A stretch of 19,005 bases of DNA. Source: Opitutales bacterium (lineage in GTDB: Bacteria; Verrucomicrobiota; Verrucomicrobiia; Opitutales; JABSRG01). Below, in pieces: positions 2,309-19,005 of the stretch. The stretch's first letter is position 1, and each line of letters opens with the position of its first letter. The notes beneath the pieces were generated by a model. That model saw only the letters and a list, made by a program, of their open reading frames with translations, did no database searches and was not told where the DNA came from. The stretch lies in the NCBI GenBank assembly GCA_049599475.1, contig JBMYOQ010000077.1, positions 1-19,005 on the forward strand. Direction: 5' to 3'. Made by a program: the position numbers and the translations under genes.

Positions 2309-3958
2309 TTACTCTTCGAAATACATGTATTTGTAGGGTCGATTATCGAGTAGCTTGGGATTGTATCCTTTGAGTCTTGTATCCTTCATGTATTGATTCG
2401 TGTACCAGTAAATGGGAGCTATCGGCGATTCCTCAAGGAGGATCGATTCTGCTTTGGCTAGAAGCGCCAAGCGTTTCGCGGTGTCTGTCTCCTGGGTGAC
2501 TTGATTGAGAATGATGTCGTCATACTCCTCACTGGCCCATCCCGTATTGTTGTTGCCGTTACCATCTGTCCACATGCTCAGGAAGGTAAACGGGTCCATG
2601 TAGTCGCCCTGCCAGCCAGAGCGGGAAATTGTGTAAGCTAGGGTTTGCTGGCTGTTGATGTAGACCTTCCATTCTTGGTTCAAAATGCCCACGTTGATGC
2701 CCAACTCCTCGCGCCACATAGATTGGATAGCCTCGGCAATCGCCTTATGGGACTCGTGAGTATTGAACAAAACTTCTATATCAGAAGGGAAGCCTTCGCC
2801 TCCGGGAAAGCCTGCTTCAGCTAAGAGCGCGCGCGCCTTGTCTGGATCGTAAGCCGTGATCCGAGGCGGGTTGTATCCGCTGATCCCTGGCGGCGTAAAG
2901 GCGTCTGCCGGAGTTTCCCCTGCCTGCGTAATGCGTTCGACGATACTCGTGCGATCGATACTCATGCTGAGTGCTTTGCGCACGCGGACATCGTCGAGGG
3001 GGGCTTTGTTTACGTTGAAACGATAGAAATAGACGGTGAGTAAGGGATCGATGTGGATCTGGTCTGCTTTCTCATCGAGGTATTTCAGGATCCTATCGGA
3101 GGGGACCTCGTTGGTTACATGGATTTCCCCGGCATTGAATGCGCGGTCTTCCGTGGTAATCGCTTCGATCGGGAGGAAGTGTATTCCGTTGAGCTGGACC
3201 GTGCTGCTATCCCAGTAAGTCTCGCTTTTCTTAACTTTTAAAATTGAAGAGGGCACCCATTCTTCAAGGACGAAAGGACCGTTGCCGACGAATTCCTCAC
3301 GAGTCCAAGGATTACTTAGAGCCGTCATGCCTCCATGTTTTTCGACGGTTGCAGGGTGCACGGGATACCAGCTGTAGTGCTTGAGCATTGAGAGGTAGTA
3401 GGGTTTTGAGCCGACTAGATCTACTTTGAGTGTGTAGTCGTCGACAGCCTTTACCCCGACCTCGGAAAAGTCTTTGATCTCGCCCCGAAAATACGCCTCT
3501 CCATTTTTTAGGATAAACAACATGTCGGCATACTTAGCACCGAAATCTGGGTGGAGCATACGATGCCAAGAGTAGACGAAGTCGTGGGCAGTAACAGTAT
3601 CTCCATTCGACCACTTGGCGTCTTGGCGCAAATAGAAGGTCCATTCAGAGTGATCCTCGTTGTGCTCCCAACGCTCAGCAACGCCGGGCTCTGGGATGTT
3701 GTCATCGGTAGGGTGATACGCAATGAGGCCCTCAATCAGGCTGCTGATGATCCGATTCTCCGGGACTCCTGTTACGATATGTGGGTCGATCCCTTGGGGT
3801 TCGGCGCCGTTACCGCGTATCAAAATGCCGTCCTTAATTGCCTGATCGGCGACGGATAGCTTGGAATCTGAAGAGGTTCCTGATTCGGGTGATTTAGGGC
3901 CGCAGGCCGTGAAGGCTGCGAGAATGCTGATGAACAGAAAAATTCGGCACGAAGGCAT
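2309..3958 (-). CDS. oppA: Oligopeptide ABC transporter substrate-binding lipoprotein OppA (family 5 SBP)
   Basis: Lipobox FTAC, GNGAEPQGIDP, AKWSNGDTVTAHDFVYSW, VGNGPFVL, DVRVRKALS motifs; adjacent to oppBC. Confidence 0.93.
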   Translation of the reverse strand: MPSCRIFLFISILAAFTACGPKSPESGTSSDSKLSVADQAIKDGILIRGNGAEPQGIDPHIVTGVPENRIISSLIEGLIAYHPTDDNIPEPGVAERWEHNEDHSEWTFYLRQDAKWSNGDTVTAHDFVYSWHRMLHPDFGAKYADMLFILKNGEAYFRGEIKDFSEVGVKAVDDYTLKVDLVGSKPYYLSMLKHYSWYPVHPATVEKHGGMTALSNPWTREEFVGNGPFVLEEWVPSSILKVKKSETYWDSSTVQLNGIHFLPIEAITTEDRAFNAGEIHVTNEVPSDRILKYLDEKADQIHIDPLLTVYFYRFNVNKAPLDDVRVRKALSMSIDRTSIVERITQAGETPADAFTPPGISGYNPPRITAYDPDKARALLAEAGFPGGEGFPSDIEVLFNTHESHKAIAEAIQSMWREELGINVGILNQEWKVYINSQQTLAYTISRSGWQGDYMDPFTFLSMWTDGNGNNNTGWASEEYDDIILNQVTQETDTAKRLALLAKAESILLEESPIAPIYWYTNQYMKDTRLKGYNPKLLDNRPYKYMYFEE

Positions 3959-4046: not shown

Positions 4047-4469
4047 TCAGGCCGCTAATACTGTCCGCTTCGAGCGCACTTGATTTACGTAGTCTGCGCG
4101 GAAAGGTTCTTCGATCCAGCGGAATCCCGTGCGCCAATCCGAGAAAACCGAGAAGTGAAAAGATGGATTAGTCGCCTTCTCATGCAAAATCCCATACGCC
4201 GTGGATGATGGAGAATCTGAGACCCATGCCCACTTGCCCTAGCATTTTAGAGGATGCTTATACATGGCTTCTTCCAGCTCCCGGAACTCGCTTAGGGACA
4301 TCTTGAAGTGCGCATCGCGCATATCAGATAGGCCTCGATATGAGCGTTGATATACAGGGTGCGTCCAAACGGTTTTGAAAGCTTCAAACAGATTGGAGCT
4401 CGTTATTTCGCCCGAAAACGACTCGATGATTAGGCGTTCCTTTGGAAATATCTCAAAAGCAAATTCCAC
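4047..4469 (-). pseudogene. STAS/SpoIIAA-like hypothetical protein interrupted by an in-frame TAG (4239-4241)
   Basis: From GTG 4469 the frame continues 63 codons past the TAG (GKWAWVSDSPSSTAYG...FSVFSDWRTGFRWIE...) to TGA 4047-4049; total ~140 codons, similar in size and motif pattern to 10103-10531. Confidence 0.65.
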
Positions 4470-4609
4470 GTGGATTAAGACAATTGTGCTTTGGGGAAAA
4501 ATCAAGTGCAGCTTGATTCTAATACGACTAGAAACGCCGAGTGCTACGGGTTTCCGTAATACTGTTGAGGCAAAGGCGCGCTACCGCATCGGTTATAACG
4601 ATCTAATCG

Positions 4610-6367: not shown

Positions 6368-9300
6368 ATGCTCAGCACCATTTTAAAAAGCTTTCAAGGC
6401 CGCCACTACCGCAAATTTCTGAAGGAGTGCGAGCCGATTGTTAAGGAAATCAATAAGCTCGAGATCGGATTCCAGTCCCTTTCAGACAGCGAGCTGAAGA
6501 TGAAGACCACCGAGCTCAGCGGGCGCGTCCGCACTGCGGTAAAAGAAGCCGTCGAAAAGGCAGGACCCAACGCGTCCGAGGACAAGGTCTCTGAAATCAG
6601 TGTAAATACGCGCCAAAAGGTGCTGGATGAAATTTTGCCCGAGGCGTTCGCTGTTGTAAAAAATGCGGCACGCCGTCTCTGTGATCGCGAATTCGAAGTC
6701 CGTGGCCATGCCCAAATCTGGAATATGGTGCACTATGATGTGCAGCTGATCGGGGGGATTGCACTCCATCGCCGTATGATCGCCGAGATGCAGACGGGTG
6801 AAGGTAAGACGCTTGTCTCGACTTGTCCTATGTATCTGAACGCGCTCACCGGCCTCAATTGTCAGCTGGTCACGGTGAATGAATATCTTGCGTTGCGTGA
6901 CTCTGAGTGGATGGGGAATCTATTTAAATTCCTCGGGCTTACTGTCGGTTGTATCCAAAACCAAATGGATCCTTCGACCAAGCGCGCCATGTATCAGTGC
7001 AATATCACCTATGGCACGGCGTCCGAGTTTGGCTTCGATTACCTGAGGGACAACGGGATGTCCTCGCGCAAGGAAGACCAAGTGCAGCGCGACCACTATT
7101 TCTGCATAATTGACGAGGCGGATTCGATTCTTGTCGATGAAGCGCGGACGCCGTTGATCATCTCCGGCCCGATGCAGGAAGATCGCCCGCTTCCTTTCGA
7201 TCAGCTCAAGCCAGGGATTCAGCGTCTAGCGCGCCAGCAAGAGCGACTCTGCACCGATTGGGCTAATCAAGCGAAGAAAATAATCGACGATCCAGAGGGC
7301 GATCGTCGCGAAGCGATGCGTTTGCTGACCCAAGTGAAGTGGGGGGCTCCGAAGAACAAGCAGCTCATGCGTTTGCTTGAAAACGGGGAGATTCATAAGG
7401 ATCTCGAAAAATTCGATGCAGAGCTCAACGCCGATTTCCAAAAGGAGGAGAAGTTCAAGATTAAGGAGGCTTTACTCTTCCAAATAGATGAAAAGCAGCA
7501 CCAAGCCGACCTTACAGAGAGGGGCCGCGAGTATCTCAAGCCGGGTGATCCATCAGCATTCTTGCTCCAAGACCTCCCGACTCTATTCAATGAGATTGAC
7601 GCCGATAACGCCCTGAACGCTGAGCAGAAGCAGCAAAAGAAGTTGGCGATCGAGCAGGAATTTCAAAAGACAAGTGAAGAGATTCACACCATCTCTCAAT
7701 TGCTCCGTGCCTACTGCATTTACGAAAAGGATCTCCAATACGTCGTCCAAGATGGGAAGGTTCAGATTGTCGACGAGAATACCGGCCGTGTGATGCCGGG
7801 TCGCCGTTGGTCCGATGGTCTGCACCAAGCCGTTGAAGCGAAGGAGGGCGTGAAGATCGAGAAGGAGACCAAGACTTACGCCACGGTCACGATTCAGAAT
7901 TACTTCCGGATGTATGAAAAGCTCGCTGGTATGACGGGCACCGCGGAGACAGAGGCGGGAGAGTTTTTCGATATTTATCGCCTCAAGGTAATGGTCATCC
8001 CGACCCATCGTCCGAACCAGCGTGTCGATGTTGACGATGTGGTCTACAAGACTCGCCGTGCGAAATTCAACGCTGTCATCGGAGAGATTGAGGAAGCGCA
8101 CCGCCGCGGACAGCCCGTTCTTGTGGGCACAGCCTCAGTCGAAGCCTCAGAGCTGCTCAGCCGTATGATGCGTCGCTCCAATATTCGCCATACCGTTCTC
8201 AACGCGAAACTGCACGCTCAGGAGGCGGAAGTCGTCGCGCGAGCGGGTCAAAAGGGAGCCGTAACGATCGCCACCAACATGGCGGGTCGCGGTACCGACA
8301 TTAAACTGGGTGAAGGTGTCGAGGAGCTGGGTGGCTTATTTGTCGTAGGCACCGAGCGCCATGAATCTCGCCGGATTGACCGCCAGCTGCGAGGACGCTG
8401 TGCGCGCCAAGGTGACCCCGGTCGCTCAAAATTCTTCATTTCATTGGAGGATGATCTGATGCGTCTGTTTGCAAACGCGGGACCGATTTCGAAGATCCTC
8501 AATAGCTCCATGGACGATGAGGAAGAGCTCTCTCACTCGGCGCTCAATTGGTCTATCCAAAACGCGCAGAAGAAAGTAGAGCAGCAGAACTATCTTGTCC
8601 GAAAACGCCTCCTCTCTTACGACGACGTCCTCAACAATCAGCGCGAGGTAGTTTACGGAATTCGCAATGACGCCATTCACAGTGAGAGCCCGCGCGATAT
8701 CATTTTCGAAATGATCGACGAGGAGCTCGAAGAGCGCATCGAAAGCGCCCAAGGCGAGACTGAAGCGCTGTTGAATTGGCTCAACCAGACATTCCCGATT
8801 GGCCTCAAGGAAGAGGATATTAAGGATAAGGAAGAAGTTGCCCTGCGCGAAGAATTGATCGCTAAGATCAAGGAAGCCTACTCAGTAAAAGCTGAGCTCG
8901 AGAATCCGGAGCATATCCACGGATTGGAGCGCTACATTGTGGTGCGCTCTCTGGACCGTCACTGGCAAGACCACCTCACCGAGATGGAAGAACTGCGCCG
9001 CGCGGTGGGCCTCAGAGGATATGGTCAAAAAGATCCCCTTTCGGAATACAAGAGTGAAGGTTTCCGCTACTTCCAGGAGATGATGAACCGGGCGCGCACG
9101 GATATGTGCACGGGCACGTTCCGTACGACCACCAATCCGGATTCACTACAAGGATTGATGAATCGCCTCAAGAACGTCGCGAACCAGCAGGGTCCATCAG
9201 AAGCTGGGGGTGCTGGATTGCCTCAACAGATGGCTGCCGCCCAATCCGCAGCTGCGGTGCCCGCTCCGGCGCAAAAACGTCCACAACCCAAGGCAACCCC

Positions 9301-10102: not shown

Positions 10103-10531
10103 ATGCCGATTCTGTTTTCCGTTTCTGAAGAGTCTCCAATATTTAGTTCAACGTGGTGCGGTACGATTACCGTAAGCGAAATGCTCCAGGCCTATACCGA
10201 GTTTTTCGAGGGTCCAGATTGGAAGGGGCGTGCTCTTGAATATGCCGACTTTTCAGAGGCAGACTTGTCCCGCATCAATGTCGCAGCCTTGCAAAAACTC
10301 TGCGAGCTCATCGCAGATACCTATAGCGAGCATGGTATTGAACATGCGCGCTGTGCATCCTGGATCCCACGGGATATTAATCGCTCACTCCTTGAGATAT
10401 ACGGCTTCCTCTCAGAAAAATCTCCTGAGGTTACGCGTGTCTTCTCAAGCAAAAGCGCGGCTATGAATTGGCTCGAGCGCGGAGACGAGCCCCAGAGTTA
10501 CGATCATCGCCTAGAAGCACGAGCGTCTTAG
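10103..10531 (+). CDS. Hypothetical protein, STAS/SpoIIAA-like (SEC14-like) fold
   Basis: 142 aa; pattern W-x-G-x-IT, EYADFSEADLS and C-terminal RVFSSKSAAMNWLE typical of small SpoIIAA-like proteins. Confidence 0.7.
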   Translation: MPILFSVSEESPIFSSTWCGTITVSEMLQAYTEFFEGPDWKGRALEYADFSEADLSRINVAALQKLCELIADTYSEHGIEHARCASWIPRDINRSLLEIYGFLSEKSPEVTRVFSSKSAAMNWLERGDEPQSYDHRLEARAS

Positions 10532-12253: not shown

Positions 12254-13315
12254 TTATTTAAGATCATCTACAGTGGGAAGCCGCTTAGAATAAGTTTCCC
12301 AATCATTGAGGATGAAATCAATCACAGGCATGCCCACACGGTAGCATGCTTCGAGCGACGGGATGAACGCAGAATACCCGCCCTTCTTTTCGCCACTCAG
12401 ACTCTGGTAGGCGGAAATGCCCTCGTGCTGCATCACAAAGTTGCTCGCGGTGCGGAGAACGAGCATGCGCGACACGTCTGCTTTGCCGGCATGGGTTAAG
12501 CGCTCGAGACTCGAATAACTGCCTGTGTCCTCCATGGCTGAAGTGACAAAATTTCCGCTGCCTTCCGAGAAATAGGCGACCCAATCATTCGCCCAATCAT
12601 TGAGCATGGTGCCGTGCCAAAAAGTCATCGCTGCCAAATGATCTCCCTTGAGAACAAAAGGCGGCTTCCGGGCATTTGGAAAATTCACATACTTCTCCCG
12701 TAGATTACGCATCGCGTCGGTGTCTGGAATTTCGACGTCCTTGGTAAGTTGATACGCAAACTCCACAAATTCGGGAACTAAGCGAAAGGCCGCGCCCTCA
12801 TTATCTGCCTGCAGCGGTTGTTCATATGGCTTTGATTTGCGCAGCGGAATATAGCCAGTCGGCCACCCCTCTTCAATTTCGCGAGCATCGATTTGGTGTG
12901 CAAGATCGCCATCCACGAGCCACTCGGCCCAAGCGGCACTTCCCAGCGAAGCATCTTTAGGGTCTACCCCTGATATCCCCGCAACGAGCCAATACGCCTT
13001 GGTCAAATCGAAACGAGGGTCCAAGCCTAAGGCCATGATCGAAGCCGCCGAACGCGCGGTGCCAATCCCGGTCACAATACCCAAAATACCTTTCTCGCGA
13101 TTCAGCCTCAGGTCGCGAAATCCCTGTGGAAACGACACAGACTCTTCAAGCGGCACCCGTTCGACCCAATATTGAAATTCCGCCGGTTTATCCCCCGTAT
13201 CCTCTCCAATTTCAAACATCGCTACCACGACGGCCTTGATCTCAATAGGCGGCTCAGCGAGCAGGGTAGAAGCAAAAAATATAAATAATACAAAAGGGCG
13301 GAGTTTACGAATCAT
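12254..13315 (-). CDS. Purine nucleoside permease (NUP) family protein, exported
   Basis: VVVAMFEIGEDTGDKPAEFQYWVER, ALGLDPRFDLTKAYWLVAGISGVDP, TSAMEDTG, LVLRTASNF; signal peptide from ATG 13315. Confidence 0.88.
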   Translation of the reverse strand: MIRKLRPFVLFIFFASTLLAEPPIEIKAVVVAMFEIGEDTGDKPAEFQYWVERVPLEESVSFPQGFRDLRLNREKGILGIVTGIGTARSAASIMALGLDPRFDLTKAYWLVAGISGVDPKDASLGSAAWAEWLVDGDLAHQIDAREIEEGWPTGYIPLRKSKPYEQPLQADNEGAAFRLVPEFVEFAYQLTKDVEIPDTDAMRNLREKYVNFPNARKPPFVLKGDHLAAMTFWHGTMLNDWANDWVAYFSEGSGNFVTSAMEDTGSYSSLERLTHAGKADVSRMLVLRTASNFVMQHEGISAYQSLSGEKKGGYSAFIPSLEACYRVGMPVIDFILNDWETYSKRLPTVDDLK

Positions 13316-13326
13316 GCCCGAACATA

Positions 13327-13343
13327 CGCAATTCACATGCCGA
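13327..13343 (-). promoter_or_regulatory. Putative sigma54 promoter of the NUP gene
   Basis: Minus strand TCGGCATGTGAATTGCG = GGCATG-N4-TTGC with exact GG-N10-GC spacing. Confidence 0.55.
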
Positions 13344-13664
13344 AATTATCAATCAGTAAATCGAGTTAACCATCCACTCGAACACTGTATCTCCAGATAA
13401 TAACAACCCAACAAAAATGGCGCACTTCAAGGAAGGGTCCGATCTCCGCGCAGACCACCCCTAGCGCAGGAGTCACAATAAATGCCCGTGTGTCCCAATG
13501 CAGTCCTTGATGATTATGTCCGCGGGTATCACAGATCGACCCCATCGCCATTGTTTCCGAATCATACCAAAATTCAAGGGCCAGTAACACCCCTATGGTC
13601 AAAGCATGGAAATGAAACCATTCGGGCCTAAATTCCGCAATAATCCCAGTAACCAATCCCGACG

Positions 13665-13906
13665 AAAGTGTCCGTATAACAGGAAAAATCCCCCAAAAAC
13701 GGACAACCAAAACCTCAACCACACACCCCAAAAACCAAAAAAGTGTCGCATAAAAGGAAAAATCTCCATTATCAGGACACCCGAAAAACTGTCGCATAAA
13801 CGGAACCCAACCTGCTATCACTCATGAACCCGCACCATTACTCAAAACCCACCAAAACCCATTTCCCAAAAACGGACACCAAGTGTCTTATATAGGACTG
13901 TTGGGT
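13665..13906 (+). other. attI-like integron site with upstream direct repeats; crossover G|TTGGGT at 13900/13901
   Basis: GTTGGGT (13900-13906) is the exact reverse complement of the first attC R'' (ACCCAAC 14799-14805); no attC hairpin upstream; four AASTGTC-n-ATAWM-n-GGA units. Confidence 0.7.
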
Positions 13907-13929
13907 AATAATATAATTTCCATAAAGTA

Positions 13930-14817
13930 ATGTTAGATGCATTTGAACAAATAAATGAGACACTTCAATCTCTGAGGTTGTCGATTGAGTCCTTGAAGAG
14001 TGAGAAATCTATTTTTGATTCATACGTTTTCCCTATAGTATCATCATTTTTTTCTGCGATTCTTGGTGGATTGATTGCCTATTGGACAATCAGGAGGCAG
14101 GAAAGAAATCAGTTTGAAAAAGAAAATATGAATGCGTCTAACCGATGCATTCTGACAGCGGAGAACTCTCTGCTTACTTTATTGGCGATCAAGGAAAACT
14201 ATTTTAAGGAATTAGGGACAGACCCTATTCAGCGCATATTTTGTGTTTCTCCAATCGTTGGCGCCAAGAAATCGATTAGTTTTGATGTTCCAACATTAGC
14301 TTTTATTGCCCCCGGACAACATTCTAAAATTACGAAATGGAATCAAGTTGTGCAGATTGATGCCCTTTTTCATAACTATAATGAGCTCTTGGAGATTTGG
14401 GAAAAATTTTTTGAAAAGTCCTCGGTTTTTAAGGAAGAGTTGATCGGAAAGCACTCGGTCAGCGCTGTAGCTGATATATCTATCAAGGATATTGTAACCG
14501 AAGTTGGTCAGAGAGATCTTTCGATTGCTTCTAGTCTTTTGGAGCGAGCATTGAGCCTTACGGACAGCTTGATTTTGGACTTTGAAGAGTTCGTAAGAGA
14601 ATTTCCAAAAATTGCTGGATCCCAGATTGATACTCGGAGGCTCAAGGGGTATGGTAAGTTATTCACCATGGGTGGACGAGAGGAGAGTATTGATCATTTA
14701 TTAGAGCGAGTTCCTTCAGTAAATTCTGAAATTTTTGCGGCTTTACTAGGTTTGTCGCCGGAGGAAGCGCAGTCCTTCGGTTCTGCCAGCGAAAAGAGAC
14801 CCAACAAGTCAGGGTAG
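13930..14817 (+). CDS. Cassette 1 (13901-14920): hypothetical protein with one N-terminal TM helix
   Basis: 295-aa ORF filling the cassette; hydrophobic YVFPIVSSFFSAILGGLIAYWTI then charged helical region; stop lies inside attC. Confidence 0.85.
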   Translation: MLDAFEQINETLQSLRLSIESLKSEKSIFDSYVFPIVSSFFSAILGGLIAYWTIRRQERNQFEKENMNASNRCILTAENSLLTLLAIKENYFKELGTDPIQRIFCVSPIVGAKKSISFDVPTLAFIAPGQHSKITKWNQVVQIDALFHNYNELLEIWEKFFEKSSVFKEELIGKHSVSAVADISIKDIVTEVGQRDLSIASSLLERALSLTDSLILDFEEFVREFPKIAGSQIDTRRLKGYGKLFTMGGREESIDHLLERVPSVNSEIFAALLGLSPEEAQSFGSASEKRPNKSG

Positions 14818-14926
14818 GTAACCCCGATACGTGCGCCGCGAGGGTTCTTTTTTGGGTTTAGCAGAGATCCGGGAGGTCATCCGCATTTTGTGGTTTACTC
14901 GGGTTACCTACCTTTTAGCGTTGGAC
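14799..14926 (+). other. attC site 1 (128 bp)
   Basis: R'' ACCCAAC, spacer AAGTC, L'' AGGGTAGG ... L' CCTACCT, spacer TTTAGC, R' GTTGGAC. Confidence 0.93.
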
Positions 14927-14934
14927 GAGAAGAA

Positions 14935-15552
14935 ATGTTTAGGCTTTTGATAGTTTTTGGAACTCTTCTGCTCGCATCATGTGCAACTGTAGAAAATACA
15001 GTTGATTCAATATCGCACGCAGCTGTGGTCACGACTTCTGCTCCAGTCGTAGGATCATACGGCGGTTACGTAGGAAGTATTCACGGATCTCAGGTATCTT
15101 CAGTTGGCATAGGTGTGCCTCCAGAGTATTATTCGGAAGAGCTGTCTAGAGAAGATTTTGATGATGAAGTCCTTTTTTACGCACGCGGAGGAGAGTTCGG
15201 CAAGACATATACTGCATACATAGGTAGTCGAGATGGGTTTCATTTCGTTTTAGTCCATCATATCGTCGGTCCGAGGAAGATCTATCGGATTAAAGAGGAA
15301 GAGTTACGTGTCTTGGATGTATTCCCATTGACTCTTGATCGAAATTATTGGGTGAGTCTGTCCAAGGCTCTCGGAACAGATGTATTCCCGGAAGTTGGCC
15401 TTTCTCTGTCTTACGATGAGTTTGTTGAAACATACCGTATTGAAGTTGAGGCCCTTGATGCACCGCTCTATGATCCGGCCCATATTGGCTTCATTAACGA
15501 CGAGGAATCTGAATTAGAGATTATTGGTATAGATGCTTTGCTGGATGATTGA
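14935..15552 (+). CDS. Cassette 2 (14921-15732): hypothetical lipoprotein
   Basis: ATG 14935 just after R'; MFRLLIVFGTLLLASC is a signal peptide with lipobox LASC; the longer ORF start (14890) lies inside attC1. Confidence 0.85.
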   Translation: MFRLLIVFGTLLLASCATVENTVDSISHAAVVTTSAPVVGSYGGYVGSIHGSQVSSVGIGVPPEYYSEELSREDFDDEVLFYARGGEFGKTYTAYIGSRDGFHFVLVHHIVGPRKIYRIKEEELRVLDVFPLTLDRNYWVSLSKALGTDVFPEVGLSLSYDEFVETYRIEVEALDAPLYDPAHIGFINDEESELEIIGIDALLDD

Positions 15553-15610
15553 TTCGATTCTGGTTTCTTTGAGTTTATTCTGTTTTTCCTTTTTGGTTAC
15601 ATCGCAGAAA

Positions 15611-15738
15611 GTCCAACAAGTCAGGATATGTAACCCCGATACCTGCGCAGCGAGATTGACCTCTATGTGTTTAGTAGGAGTTTTAGAGTGAGGGGCAGTT
15701 TTAGGTTTACTCGGGTTACATACCTTCTAGCGTTAGTC
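15611..15738 (+). other. attC site 2 (128 bp)
   Basis: R'' GTCCAAC (complement of the cassette start GTTGGAC), AAGTC, L'' AGGATATG ... L' CATACCT, TCTAGC, R' GTTAGTC. Confidence 0.93.
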
Positions 15739-15748
15739 AAAAAGTGAT

Positions 15749-17548
15749 ATGGATATGTTAACACCAATAACAGGCATTGTGGGTAAGAAGGTTTTTGAAA
15801 AAGTCGCTCTAGACGTATACAAATTCCTTGGTGAAAAAGCGAAAGGTTCCATCCAAAAATGGCGTGCAGATAAAGGGATTAGCGAACTCTACTCCCAGAT
15901 TAGTTCGATTCGCTTGGTCAAGACTCTCTGGCAAGTAGATAAACCGGTAGACCTTGCTGAGTTCTATTGTTATCCAAGGGTTCGGTTTAGTGTTAAGCGA
16001 CGCAAGGAAATCCGAGACTTGAACGACTTGAATCGAAGCAAGGGTGGCGTTTTGATCCAAGGGATAGCTGGGCAGGGGAAGTCGACATTTTTACGGTATT
16101 TGTGTGCGCGAGAGATGCAGAAAGGAGAAAAATTACCCGTATTTCTGGAATTGCGCAAAATCAATGAAGACCAAACTCTATTCGATCATATTAAAGTGTG
16201 GCTTGAGGTGCTTGGCATTGAATTGGATGAGTCATCGATGAAGGAGATTGGTCGCTCGGGGAAATTGATCTTTTTTTTAGATGGTTTCGATGAGGTGAGA
16301 GAAGATCTAAGGCTTAAATTGATTACCGAGATCGAGTATCTTATATCGCTCTGTAAAAAATCGGTGGTTATCGTTTCATCACGTCCAGATAATGGAATTG
16401 ATGTGTCACCATCATTGGATGTTGTTCAGCTTGAGAATTTACATGGTGATGAGTATGAGGATGTGGTGCGGCGCTTGGCGGTTAAAAGCAGAGATGCGGA
16501 GCATCTCATTAGCCAAGTAAACTCTCACGGGAGCAATATTAAAGACCTTTTGATTACTCCATTATTTGTTACTCTCTTATTGATCACATATAAATCCTTT
16601 CAAGAGCTTCCTGATGAGTTAGCTGATTTTTATGATGCGTTGTTCCAGGTGTTATTGAAGCGTCACGACGGAACAAAGCCGGGATTTAAGCGAGAGCGCC
16701 ATTGCTCAATAAATGACAAGCAGTATCGATTTGCATTTGATTCCTTTTGTTATGAATCGAAGCGGAGTAGAATACAGTCGTTTTCTGATACTGAGGTTTA
16801 TAATTTCGCAAAGGTCGCGTTAAATAAGAGGAAGTTCGATGCAGATCCAGAAGGATTCTTGAATGATATTATTAAGGTGACTTGTTTGCTGGTGAGAGAT
16901 GGTGGTGAATACAGGTTTATTCATAAAAGTGTACAAGAGTACTTTGCTGCATCTTTTCTCTCCTCTAGGCCAGAGAACGTTATAAGAAAGTTTTACGAGT
17001 CTCTTATTGAAAACTCTAGATTCAAATATTGGGAACAGGAATTTAAGTTTCTCGAAGAGATTGATAGGTTCCGTTACATAAAGTTTTTTAGACTTCCTAT
17101 GTTAAGAAGAAATCTCGGTTTGAGTGAGGGAGATACGCTGAAAATTCCTCGTATTACTCTTAAGAGAACGGTCGAAATACTTGGTGGGGTTAATATAGTT
17201 GTATTTCAAGGAAGTAGAAATAACAGAGTTAGTTTGATTGATTCGGGAGCCTTACCTTTTGACTTGTTCCCGTTTCGAGAACTATTGGATCTAGATTATA
17301 GTACTGTTTCGTATGTGAAGTCAGGTGTAAAGGTGGCTGCTAAGAATGGGTCCAGAATGAAAGATGCACGAATAATGACGCTAGGAACTGTTATTCGTCG
17401 TGGAGAGTTACGTGAAGAAACAAAGGCTATCGTTGCGAAAGTGCTCCAGAAAATTTTTGATGAAGCTTTAGGTCATGAGAAATGGTTGGAAGAAGCGCAG
17501 GAGGAAGATCTGACTTTGGACTTTCCGGAACTAAGCCATGAGGACTAA
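15749..17548 (+). CDS. Cassette 3 (15733-17664): NACHT-domain STAND NTPase
   Basis: Walker A GIAGQGKST, Walker B IFFLDGFDE, sensor SSRP, TPLFVTLL, winged-helix YRFIHKSVQEYFAA. Confidence 0.9.
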   Translation: MDMLTPITGIVGKKVFEKVALDVYKFLGEKAKGSIQKWRADKGISELYSQISSIRLVKTLWQVDKPVDLAEFYCYPRVRFSVKRRKEIRDLNDLNRSKGGVLIQGIAGQGKSTFLRYLCAREMQKGEKLPVFLELRKINEDQTLFDHIKVWLEVLGIELDESSMKEIGRSGKLIFFLDGFDEVREDLRLKLITEIEYLISLCKKSVVIVSSRPDNGIDVSPSLDVVQLENLHGDEYEDVVRRLAVKSRDAEHLISQVNSHGSNIKDLLITPLFVTLLLITYKSFQELPDELADFYDALFQVLLKRHDGTKPGFKRERHCSINDKQYRFAFDSFCYESKRSRIQSFSDTEVYNFAKVALNKRKFDADPEGFLNDIIKVTCLLVRDGGEYRFIHKSVQEYFAASFLSSRPENVIRKFYESLIENSRFKYWEQEFKFLEEIDRFRYIKFFRLPMLRRNLGLSEGDTLKIPRITLKRTVEILGGVNIVVFQGSRNNRVSLIDSGALPFDLFPFRELLDLDYSTVSYVKSGVKVAAKNGSRMKDARIMTLGTVIRRGELREETKAIVAKVLQKIFDEALGHEKWLEEAQEEDLTLDFPELSHED

Positions 17549-17670
17549 CAAGTCGGAGTAAGTAACAGCGATTGTGCTCGGCGCGAGGTGCGTTTCGGGG
17601 GAAGGGGTGAAATGTTTGGTTCCAAGTCAGAAATAGCTTCCATCGCTGCACTTATCCTTTAGCGTTGTGC
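17543..17670 (+). other. attC site 3 (128 bp)
   Basis: R'' GACTAAC (complement of GTTAGTC, overlaps the NACHT stop), AAGTC, L'' GGAGTAAG ... L' CTTATCC, TTTAGC, R' GTTGTGC. Confidence 0.92.
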
Positions 17671-17800
17671 AAAAGAATGAGCGTGCCTGAACATCTTTGG
17701 AGATTCCCAACTGCCGAAGCTAGAAAGTCTTTGGCTGAGCGTTTTGATCTTCCGAATTCTAAGGAAATGCAAGATTGGGAGTGGGAAGTAGCCGATCCTA

Positions 17801-18654
17801 GGGTGTGTTCGAAAACCTAAAAAAGACTTGTACCGCATGCATTTATTCAAGACACTCTATGGACATGAAGATCAGGATGCATGCCGCGGACAAAGCCCTC
17901 GTTTTAGGGCTAAAAAAATTAATCAATTTGAGGAACCTAATCAACCTGTACCCGCAGCGATTGGAGGGCGGCCTCAGGTTAAAATAGAGACCATTCTCGA
18001 AGCTGTTTTGTATCGCATGCGCGAAGGCTGCACTTGGAGGTCATTGAGTATTTTTGCTCCTTATACAACGATCTATACACGTTGGAACAAGTGGGTATCC
18101 CAAGGGCTTTGGGATCGCATTTTAGAGCATGTCAGTCGGTCTGCTTGTGGCAAGCTCTGGGCGATCGATGGCACTTGTATTAAAGTTCACAAGCATGCTC
18201 ATGGTGCATCGCAATATGCTGATAATCAGTGTATTGGGAAATCTAAAGGAGGACCGAATACGAAAGTCCATGCTCTGGTCGATGCAAAAGGGCGAGCTCT
18301 CAGGATTCATCTAACCGCAGGAAATAGACATGATCTAGTCCCCGCCGAAGAGCTGGTCGACGGATATCAAGGAAGAACAATCCTTGCAGATAAAGCCTAC
18401 GATTCAGACCGCTTTCGGAAGTTTTTCTGATAGGGCTGGACGTGTGCATCCCCTCAAAATCAAATCGCAAAAGCCCGATTCCTTACCAAAAGTCCCAATA
18501 TAAAAAGCGTCACAAAGTTGAGAACTTTTTCCAACGCATAAAAGAGAAGCGAGCCATCGCAACTCGTTACGAAAAACATGACAACAACTTCCTCGCGATG
18601 ATACTACTATGCGCCATCTGCGATTGGATCAAAAAGTAGTTTTCGAACACACCC
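17801..18654 (+). mobile_element. IS5-family (IS427-like) insertion sequence, 854 bp
   Basis: Perfect 16-bp IRs GGGTGTGTTCGAAAAC (17801-17816) and GTTTTCGAACACACCC (18639-18654); CTAG target on both sides (TA or CTAG duplication). Confidence 0.92.
17828..18639 (+). pseudogene. IS5-family DDE transposase in two frames (17828-18430 and ~18421-18639)
   Basis: GGRP...ILEAVLYRMREGCTWRSL, AIDGT, GKSKGGPNTKVHALVD, LADKAYDSD, then in the -1 frame VCIPSKSNR...YKKRHKVENFFQRIKEKRAIATRYEK; start codon uncertain. Confidence 0.8.
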
Positions 18655-18953
18655 TAGTTGAATCGAAGAATTCAAGAAAGCATACTCAAGCGGAGAGTTG
18701 AGTGATGATGAACGATTTACCTTGATGGAGACAATTATCCAATCATTCGCGGATTTAGAGGTTTCGCTACATGATAATGTTATGTGGCTTGATACGCTTA
18801 GCACTCTTGAAGAGAATCTTGATCTCCACATATATTCGGTGTGGTATTGGTCTGATCTTGAGAATCAAGACGAAGAGTATGAGTGGGAGGTCACCGAGTC
18901 TATACGCTCATTACTTCTGCGCCATATGGGTAGGTATATGAGGACTGTGTGAT

Positions 18954-19005
18954 TGTCGGTTTGCGGTTAAAATGCACCAGTAATTTGCGGGTGAAAGTGC
19001 ACCAT
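18954..19005. mobile_element. Probable terminal repeat of an IS21-family element (truncated by window end)
   Basis: Starts TGT and contains tandem repeats TTTGCGGTTAAAATGCACCA (18960-18979) and TTTGCGGGTGAAAGTGCACCA (18984-19004). Confidence 0.6.

Follow-up and report, generated by a model that had tools for sequence, protein, structure and literature searches.

The DNA analysed here, a stretch of 19,005 nucleotides (the window) that makes up the entire contig C77 of an Opitutales genome, probably holds a satellite integron: a copy of an attI platform that has no integrase gene (intI) of its own and heads a separate cassette array, on which the integron integrase (IntI) encoded on another contig, C120, acts in trans. 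The parent assembly (G000; 4.68 Mb in 146 contigs, completeness 96.6%, contamination 0.04%) was assembled from a seawater metagenome, and the runs that contain the window are marine metagenomes. The original prediction was of a cassette array with an attI-like site and no adjacent integrase; beyond it, the platform is one of three copies in this genome, and the same layout recurs across the order.

Descriptions of integrons give them a single integrase, a single attI and a single array, with good expression only near attI, and IntI is diffusible and routinely supplied in trans in assays. CALINs, arrays of attC sites with no intI nearby, are more numerous than complete integrons. Since attI can be recognised in a few classes only, the question whether CALINs keep an attI could not be put. 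In the available text of the 2016 CALIN survey (PMC4889954), these arrays are explained by intI loss, rearrangement or secondary-site insertion; attI was searched for classes 1-3 only, and a split-off CALIN was treated as cut off from the cassette promoter Pc. The accessible parts of two reviews (PMC9024848, PMC3607928) give one attI per integron, near the integrase, and in the available portions of two further reports (PMC9668308, 10.1101/2025.06.18.660453) IntI acting in trans is considered able to mobilise CALIN cassettes. In the literature searched, with subscription journals and supplements outside the scope, we found no lineage-wide description of chromosomes that carry several dispersed attI platforms. 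If the satellites are live, a cell would escape the single-slot limit and could hold several fresh genes (here including a NACHT protein) under the platform promoter at once, and a single enzyme may supply gene-capture sites at several points of the chromosome.

Three attI platforms and one integrase

Judging from its sequence, the attI-like site of the window is a real attI platform. The reading of the first core (13900) as attI stood up: no attC site was found upstream of it, and the platform core (Table 1) matches the DNA that separates the intact intI of C120 from the first cassette there, and the two end at a common crossover. These two cores are identical across their last 195 bp. The third copy, on C5, also lacks an integrase and lies downstream of an unrelated 770-aa gene. 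One platform is thus beside intI and two are not, and the three are followed by different genes as first cassettes, each with the exact core match (R'/R'') that is the signature of attC x attI insertion. The platform core carries repeated TGTC..ATA / GGACA motifs, which are possible accessory IntI sites. A 64-bp match to the platform on C1 was not confirmed by profile and was set aside.

The genome-wide search found one intact IntI, that of C120, which is the only one over cut-off (TIGR02249, 349 bits against a cut-off of 265). Its residues R250, K275, H381, R384, H407 and Y416 are invariant, its integron-specific insertion aligns with that of other IntI, and the matches that cover its long N-terminus are Verrucomicrobiota/Opitutales records (L123, L155, L181), in keeping with an Opitutales host. 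The gene is followed by its own attI and by three attC sites of the same family as those of the window. A six-frame scan found no second full IntI in the assembly, from which, at its completeness and contig number, a second intI could be missing. The absence of an integrase beside the window array was borne out, the IntI profile reaching at best -5.2 bits on 13000-13900 (against 719 bits for C120) with no remnant there, nothing on the whole of C77, and no intI trace at either the C77 or the C5 platform. An intact NUP gene does occupy the place where a divergent intI normally sits, and past it the G+C content drops from about 50% to 38-47%. In three members of the family (G003, G006 and G002) the NUP orthologues have other genes and no platform within 1.5 kb upstream, so the NUP locus was colonised secondarily by the platform. 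Three whereabouts had been proposed for the integrase, namely lost, supplied in trans, or at the far end of the array. Supply in trans is favoured, because the one intact IntI adjoins a 98%-identical platform copy with an array of its own; the far end of the window array is unassembled and may still have an integrase.

Outside the core, the two integrase-less platforms share a left arm (Table 1). Over 13514-13668, 118 of 163 aligned columns are identical to C5, against 81 of 172 to the intI side, and nhmmer found no third copy of the arm in the genome. A derivation of this arm from intI is not supported, as the arm has no IntI similarity. Core identity pairs C77 with C120, not with C5. The C5 and C120 arrays end in the same last 55 letters, beginning at the crossover, so that one cassette seems to stand in both arrays. 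A crude scan for the cassette promoter Pc gave no plus-strand sigma-70 match in 13200-14000, and no convincing inverted repeat was found at the left boundary of the platform, the right end of the array being unassembled.

Two small motifs were observed near the platforms. CATGAA, 45-77 bp before the crossover (13823-13828 in the window), is found again in platforms of G000 and G003 and in those of several genomes from another family. An imperfect palindrome just before the intI start (L007, which is G000:C120, about 6488-6506; also L026 and L022) is kept in G000, G001 and G003 and absent from the satellites; it is possibly a regulator site.

In the possible source run, one record agrees with the window at every letter between 11000 and 13738, so that it reaches past NUP into the platform. 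At 13768 the depth is 63, compared with 19-26 on the unique parts, which corresponds to about three copies, and the unique flanks and arrays are equal in depth. No Logan record spans the whole platform core, and a collapsed record carries two letters present in neither copy; the pairing of the window array with the NUP flank therefore rests on the assembly. In a run of a second study, 13275-13667 and pieces of cassettes 2-4 are unchanged, and no cassette turnover was seen at the window locus between the two samples. Depth over attC sites reaches 614, indicating that many more cassettes exist than were binned, and the contig joints at cassettes fit other cassettes, not circles. In RNA run X3, short contigs identical to parts of cassettes 1 and 3 occur at a depth of 2-4, contigs being unable to show transcription. 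Cassette 1 is without cover in X2, an absence that carries no weight.

The cassette array of the window

Table 1. Features of the window (coordinates from its first letter).
Feature	Position	Strand	Description
NUP (purine nucleoside permease), intact, divergent	12254..13336	-	PF06516, 361 bits; in the place where intI would be
Short dispersed palindromic repeat, degenerate copy	13430..13468	.	Presumably REP-like; 79-89% matches on C115, C57, C2, C24, C72, C116
Left arm, about 135 bp	13534..13668	+	Common to the C77 and C5 integrase-less platforms only; absent at the intI locus
attI platform core	13669..13903	+	230/235 to C120:6526-6760; 216/239 to C5:137909-138147; crossover core at 13900
Cassette 1	13900..14919	+	295-aa protein, unnamed family, 13930-14817; attC 14799-14926; exact R'/R'' (GTTGGGT 13900 / ACCCAAC 14799)
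Cassette 2	14920..15731	+	205-aa protein 14935-15552, lipoprotein-like N-terminus (read from sequence); attC 15611-15738; exact R'/R'' (GTTGGAC 14920 / GTCCAAC 15611)
Cassette 3	15732..17663	+	599-aa NACHT/STAND NTPase 15749-17548, PF05729 42.3 bits, over cut-off; attC 17543-17670; R'/R'' GTTAGTC 15732 / GACTAAC 17543
Cassette 4, broken gene	17664..18952	+	R' GTTGTGC at 17664; split by IS, stop codon; no matching R'' downstream
IS5-family element in cassette 4	17801..18654	+	Terminal inverted repeats; transposase in two ORFs (DUF4096 + DDE_Tnp_1)
Multicopy IS end, breaks contig	18954..19005	+	This end in 31 copies and the opposite end in 26, every one at the end of a contig

Each of the three cassettes opens with seven letters that match, exactly and in reverse complement, its own R'', and all three pairs lie where the original prediction had placed them. 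With four of the seven letters free, simple arithmetic puts the chance of three such pairs at about (1/256)^3, and the match is exact in 7/7 same-family cassettes of the genome (three in the window and four on C120 and C5). The attC sites of the window, 128 bp each, have a mean column identity of 76% when aligned, and that of cassette 1 is 88.8% identical to the first attC of C120. Their bottom strands fold to the expected hairpin, with energies no better than those of shuffles (z -0.85, 0.06 and -1.37). Over the seven attC copies of the genome, and with the structure derived from the same seven sequences, compensatory changes occur in 10 of 20 stem pairs, a level reached by none of 500 shuffles, and slid controls collapse. 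The model built from these copies also recovers nine sites in G001 and 17 in G003, none of which was used in building it; in the own genome, 150 of 731 candidates were scored. A search of that genome with nhmmer returned the same seven sites plus weaker ones on C39 and C55. A generic attC grammar scan was insensitive (2/7 known sites recovered), and an Rfam scan of the window gave no relevant match and two chance matches outside the array region.

The stretch on C39 (L010, 1-3500) is AT-rich and cassette-like, lies beside an IS end and has no attI platform. It contains a degenerate attC of the family (2094-2215), a short attC near 2960-3020, and four copies of a 15-letter motif between genes (488, 1970, 3024 and 3481). 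On C55, a degenerate family attC (1124-1248) stands ahead of a gene that looks NUDIX-like by eye, 1 kb from an IS end.

The first three cassettes are intact and their cores perfect; decay is under way in the distal array, which has two IS insertions and a broken cassette 4. The cassette 1 protein has no Pfam match over cut-off and no NCBIfam or PADLOC match, and its Atlas look-alikes (0.97-0.98) are every one hypothetical. Pfam, NCBIfam and PADLOC likewise gave no family match for the cassette 2 protein. The NACHT/STAND NTPase of cassette 3 is a possible anti-phage sensor; its matches to EruA/DS8 anti-phage proteins are weak and far under cut-off, and PADLOC recognised none of the seven cassette proteins. 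Cassette 4 has no attC in the contig because the contig stops in a multicopy IS end. A target-duplication partner of this terminal IS was sought as a way to continue the array, and none was found. The IS5-family element of cassette 4 has a diverged copy on C67. The terminal IS, whose ends we take to be IS21-like, stands at 57 contig ends and so accounts for many contig breaks, suggesting a recent expansion to about 30 copies. Elsewhere in the window, two small genes with no Pfam match (10103-10531 and 4239-4505) flank secA and sigma-54 regulator genes, as named from their translations.

Platforms lacking an integrase across the order

The platform DNA of the window gave a single weak 37-bp match among 60 relatives, and a 22-letter attI pattern had no match in metagenome contigs. 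Each relative's own intI-upstream DNA was searched against that relative's genome (G018, G036 and G043, which offered no intact intI-upstream region, were left out), which is a direct and cheaply scaled way to find satellites. Extra copies were found in five of eight relatives, with 16 matches in G003, three further places in G001, two in G027, one in G054 and three (one examined) in G033; there were none in G004, G006 and G059. At least 16 attI cores, mostly with different cassettes next to them, lie in the 20 regions fetched from G003, and two of the G003 copies have an internally deleted intI upstream.

With five candidates scored in each genome, IntI exceeded the cut-off in 152 of 401 genomes from the order. 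Near-closed genomes were chosen to remove the worry of binned strains, and an attI-core pattern was read from intI-adjacent sites. It gave 41 matches in 16 of 30 genomes, those on the intI side being there by construction, and a reversed control gave none. Among the 36 matches examined, 10 have a full intI upstream, two a remnant and 24 none within 1.5-2 kb; the other five are all at intI positions. Matches in G061 and G023, which have no R'' partner, were dropped as likely chance, leaving 22 cores with no IntI match within 1.5-2 kb in 11 near-closed genomes, seven of which are single contigs. An exact R'' follows within 700 bp in 16 of these 22 (16/24 with the dropped matches), compared with a shuffle mean of 0.97 (maximum 5) and upstream controls of 1 and 2, and most of the 16 sites then have an attC-like hairpin. 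No two of the first cassettes at the 22 cores are alike. Such copies number as many as eight in a closed genome, and one draft (G003) has at least 16. The conserved attI core, which comes from one family of the order, also serves as a workable definition of attI beyond Proteobacteria.

Satellite pairs share arms and break points that are absent at intI in five genomes (G000, G001, G003, G363 and G388), implying duplication after intI was lost. For example, the G363 pair aligns over 564 bp at 85%, compared with about 240 bp at 73-76% to the intI side. The integrase-less unit itself seems to duplicate, satellites often sharing a left arm that the intI locus does not have. All stages of decay are also present, among them an internally deleted intI (G054, G003), its first codons only (G027) and a 5' remnant (G388). 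The closed genome G089 has three near-identical complete integrons with different first cassettes (C1 at about 336 kb, 2.47 Mb and 2.68 Mb), and in G151, G161 and G388 several closed-genome satellites are of a platform type other than that of the resident intI, which would fit relics of replaced integrases.

A fourth attI in G089 is of another type. In G003, ORF-less cassettes of about 430-480 bp stand directly at attI (L069 from 2719; L072 3993-4414, in array orientation); their core is of a non-canonical GAT type (R' GATATGG, own R'' CCATATC), and they are found repeatedly, in several arrays. Two of these sites had been taken for an empty attI with a conserved right arm, a reading that was rejected in favour of ORF-less GAT-core cassettes. 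Such cassettes also come first at attI in G089, G166, G214, G260 and G345. In G003 L071 (2770-3439) and L080 (1784-2189), an ORF-less cassette of this kind, immediately after an attC, encloses a second attI platform; in L066 and L072 the second platform comes after a truncated attC and a stub, presumably IS110-like. In the same genus, the IntI of L026 (G001:C319) lacks about 90 residues, including the region of the first catalytic arginine, and that genome still has three further platforms.

Competing explanations and related systems

The two integrase-less copies would descend from a unit that was already without intI, as suggested by the left arm that they share, which is 28% diverged and absent at the intI locus. 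The near-identity of the C77 and C120 cores would then reflect later homogenisation or selection. Diffusible IntI may still move cassettes between arrays, a step to which the identical cassette start ending the C5 and C120 arrays points, and a cassette promoter carried on the platform is predicted to make each satellite a further first, expressed position. Candidate routes to a new locus are duplication of a whole integron followed by deletion of intI, carriage between attC sites, and help from REP elements or a transposase. That the C120 enzyme inserts at the satellites, and that these are active, is inferred, and several points count against a live satellite. For the cassette shared by C5 and C120, of which 55 letters are visible, excision in trans would be enough and capture at a satellite attI is not required, and the grouping of the C77 core with that of C120 is not predicted by a simple tree in which satellite begets satellite, so that homogenisation is needed. 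We also count here the lack of turnover, the IS damage, the absence of a Pc by sigma-70 scan and the foreign-type satellites in closed genomes.

Some of these points lend weight to an unlikely alternative, in which a whole integron was duplicated, the copies captured cassettes with their own intI, and two then lost it, leaving frozen CALINs that keep attI. Every intermediate that this requires is at hand in relatives, from the three complete integrons of G089 to the deleted, truncated and remnant genes described above, and intI pseudogenes born by duplication have been reported (PMC2426708, available text), as has intI duplication with decay. The IS damage and unchanging state of the window array would agree with it as well. 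Yet no trace of intI is left at C77 or C5 while the core remains 98% identical to a live platform beside an arm that has drifted by 28%; cassettes 1-3 keep perfect cores, one cassette start is identical in C5 and C120, and the break points shared by satellite pairs place their multiplication after the loss of intI.

Two artefacts were weighed in the same way. That the assembler swapped flanks across the core, the window array really lying behind intI and the C120 array behind NUP, is quite improbable; it draws on the identity of the last 195 bp and on the missing record across the core, with its collapsed record of two foreign letters. The repeat is nevertheless presumably short enough for paired reads to bridge, and three left flanks with one intI still leave two integrase-less platforms, so the main conclusion holds under either pairing. 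Hardly credible is a mixture of strains, with three platforms from different cells, one integron each, binned together. Although the assembly derives from a metagenome, its contamination is 0.04%, the unique flanks and arrays are equal in depth, the NUP and C5 flanks are not intI, and the same layout is found in seven single-contig genomes. The satellite reading, in which C120 IntI serves the window array in trans, is the one that we prefer.

Among known systems, the window is formally a CALIN (PMC4889954, PMC8618304, as far as their available text goes) but would work like an arm of a complete integron. It shares with the CALINs of PMC4889954 at least two attC sites (three here), the lack, as far as the contig reaches, of a nearby intI (none in the 13.9 kb upstream or inside the array, the contig ending 1.3 kb past the last attC), an IntI elsewhere in the genome, as for half of CALINs, and an IS in the array; it differs in keeping a 98% copy of a live attI platform, and in that such copies are multiple and recurrent. 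C120 is a sedentary chromosomal integron (intI, attI, Pc and array) with which the window shares the attI region, attC family and cassette grammar, but not an intI in cis. The direct precedent, in the accessible part of PMC9892861, is a Shewanella prophage in which a CALIN headed by attI stands next to a complete integron of one and the same type. That case is single and within one 40-kb prophage, whereas here the copies lie beside unrelated chromosomal genes across the order. In attG-derived SALIN/CALIN arrays, IntI likewise places cassettes far from intI (Loot et al., 10.1101/2022.09.11.507474, available text), but attG is a three-letter GWT site; the first cassette of the window follows a full 235-bp attI platform and not a bare genomic GWT, and the array is therefore not an attG-derived CALIN. 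Mobile integrons also have attI copies off their usual place that can recombine, namely Delta-attI cassettes and duplicated attI1 (PMC12901181, available text), although these are partial sites within class 1/2 arrays, and here whole platforms stand at distant chromosomal loci.

A bolder reading, possible but tentative, is that the integrase-less attI platform is a self-spreading, non-autonomous unit, partly cargo between two attC sites, and that the order runs distributed integrons in which a single IntI supplies as many as about 20 docking sites, every site offering a first, expressed slot of its own. It draws on the arms and break points shared in five genomes and on the two G003 platforms inside an ORF-less cassette behind attC, which attC x attC excision would carry along. 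Were it true, many elements now classed as inert CALINs would belong, as live arms, to one system.

Several satellites, including that of the window, adjoin REP-like repeats. In G161 (L248), a satellite comes right after a palindromic repeat and a gene that we read as a REP-associated tyrosine transposase, and similar repeats flank satellites of G388.
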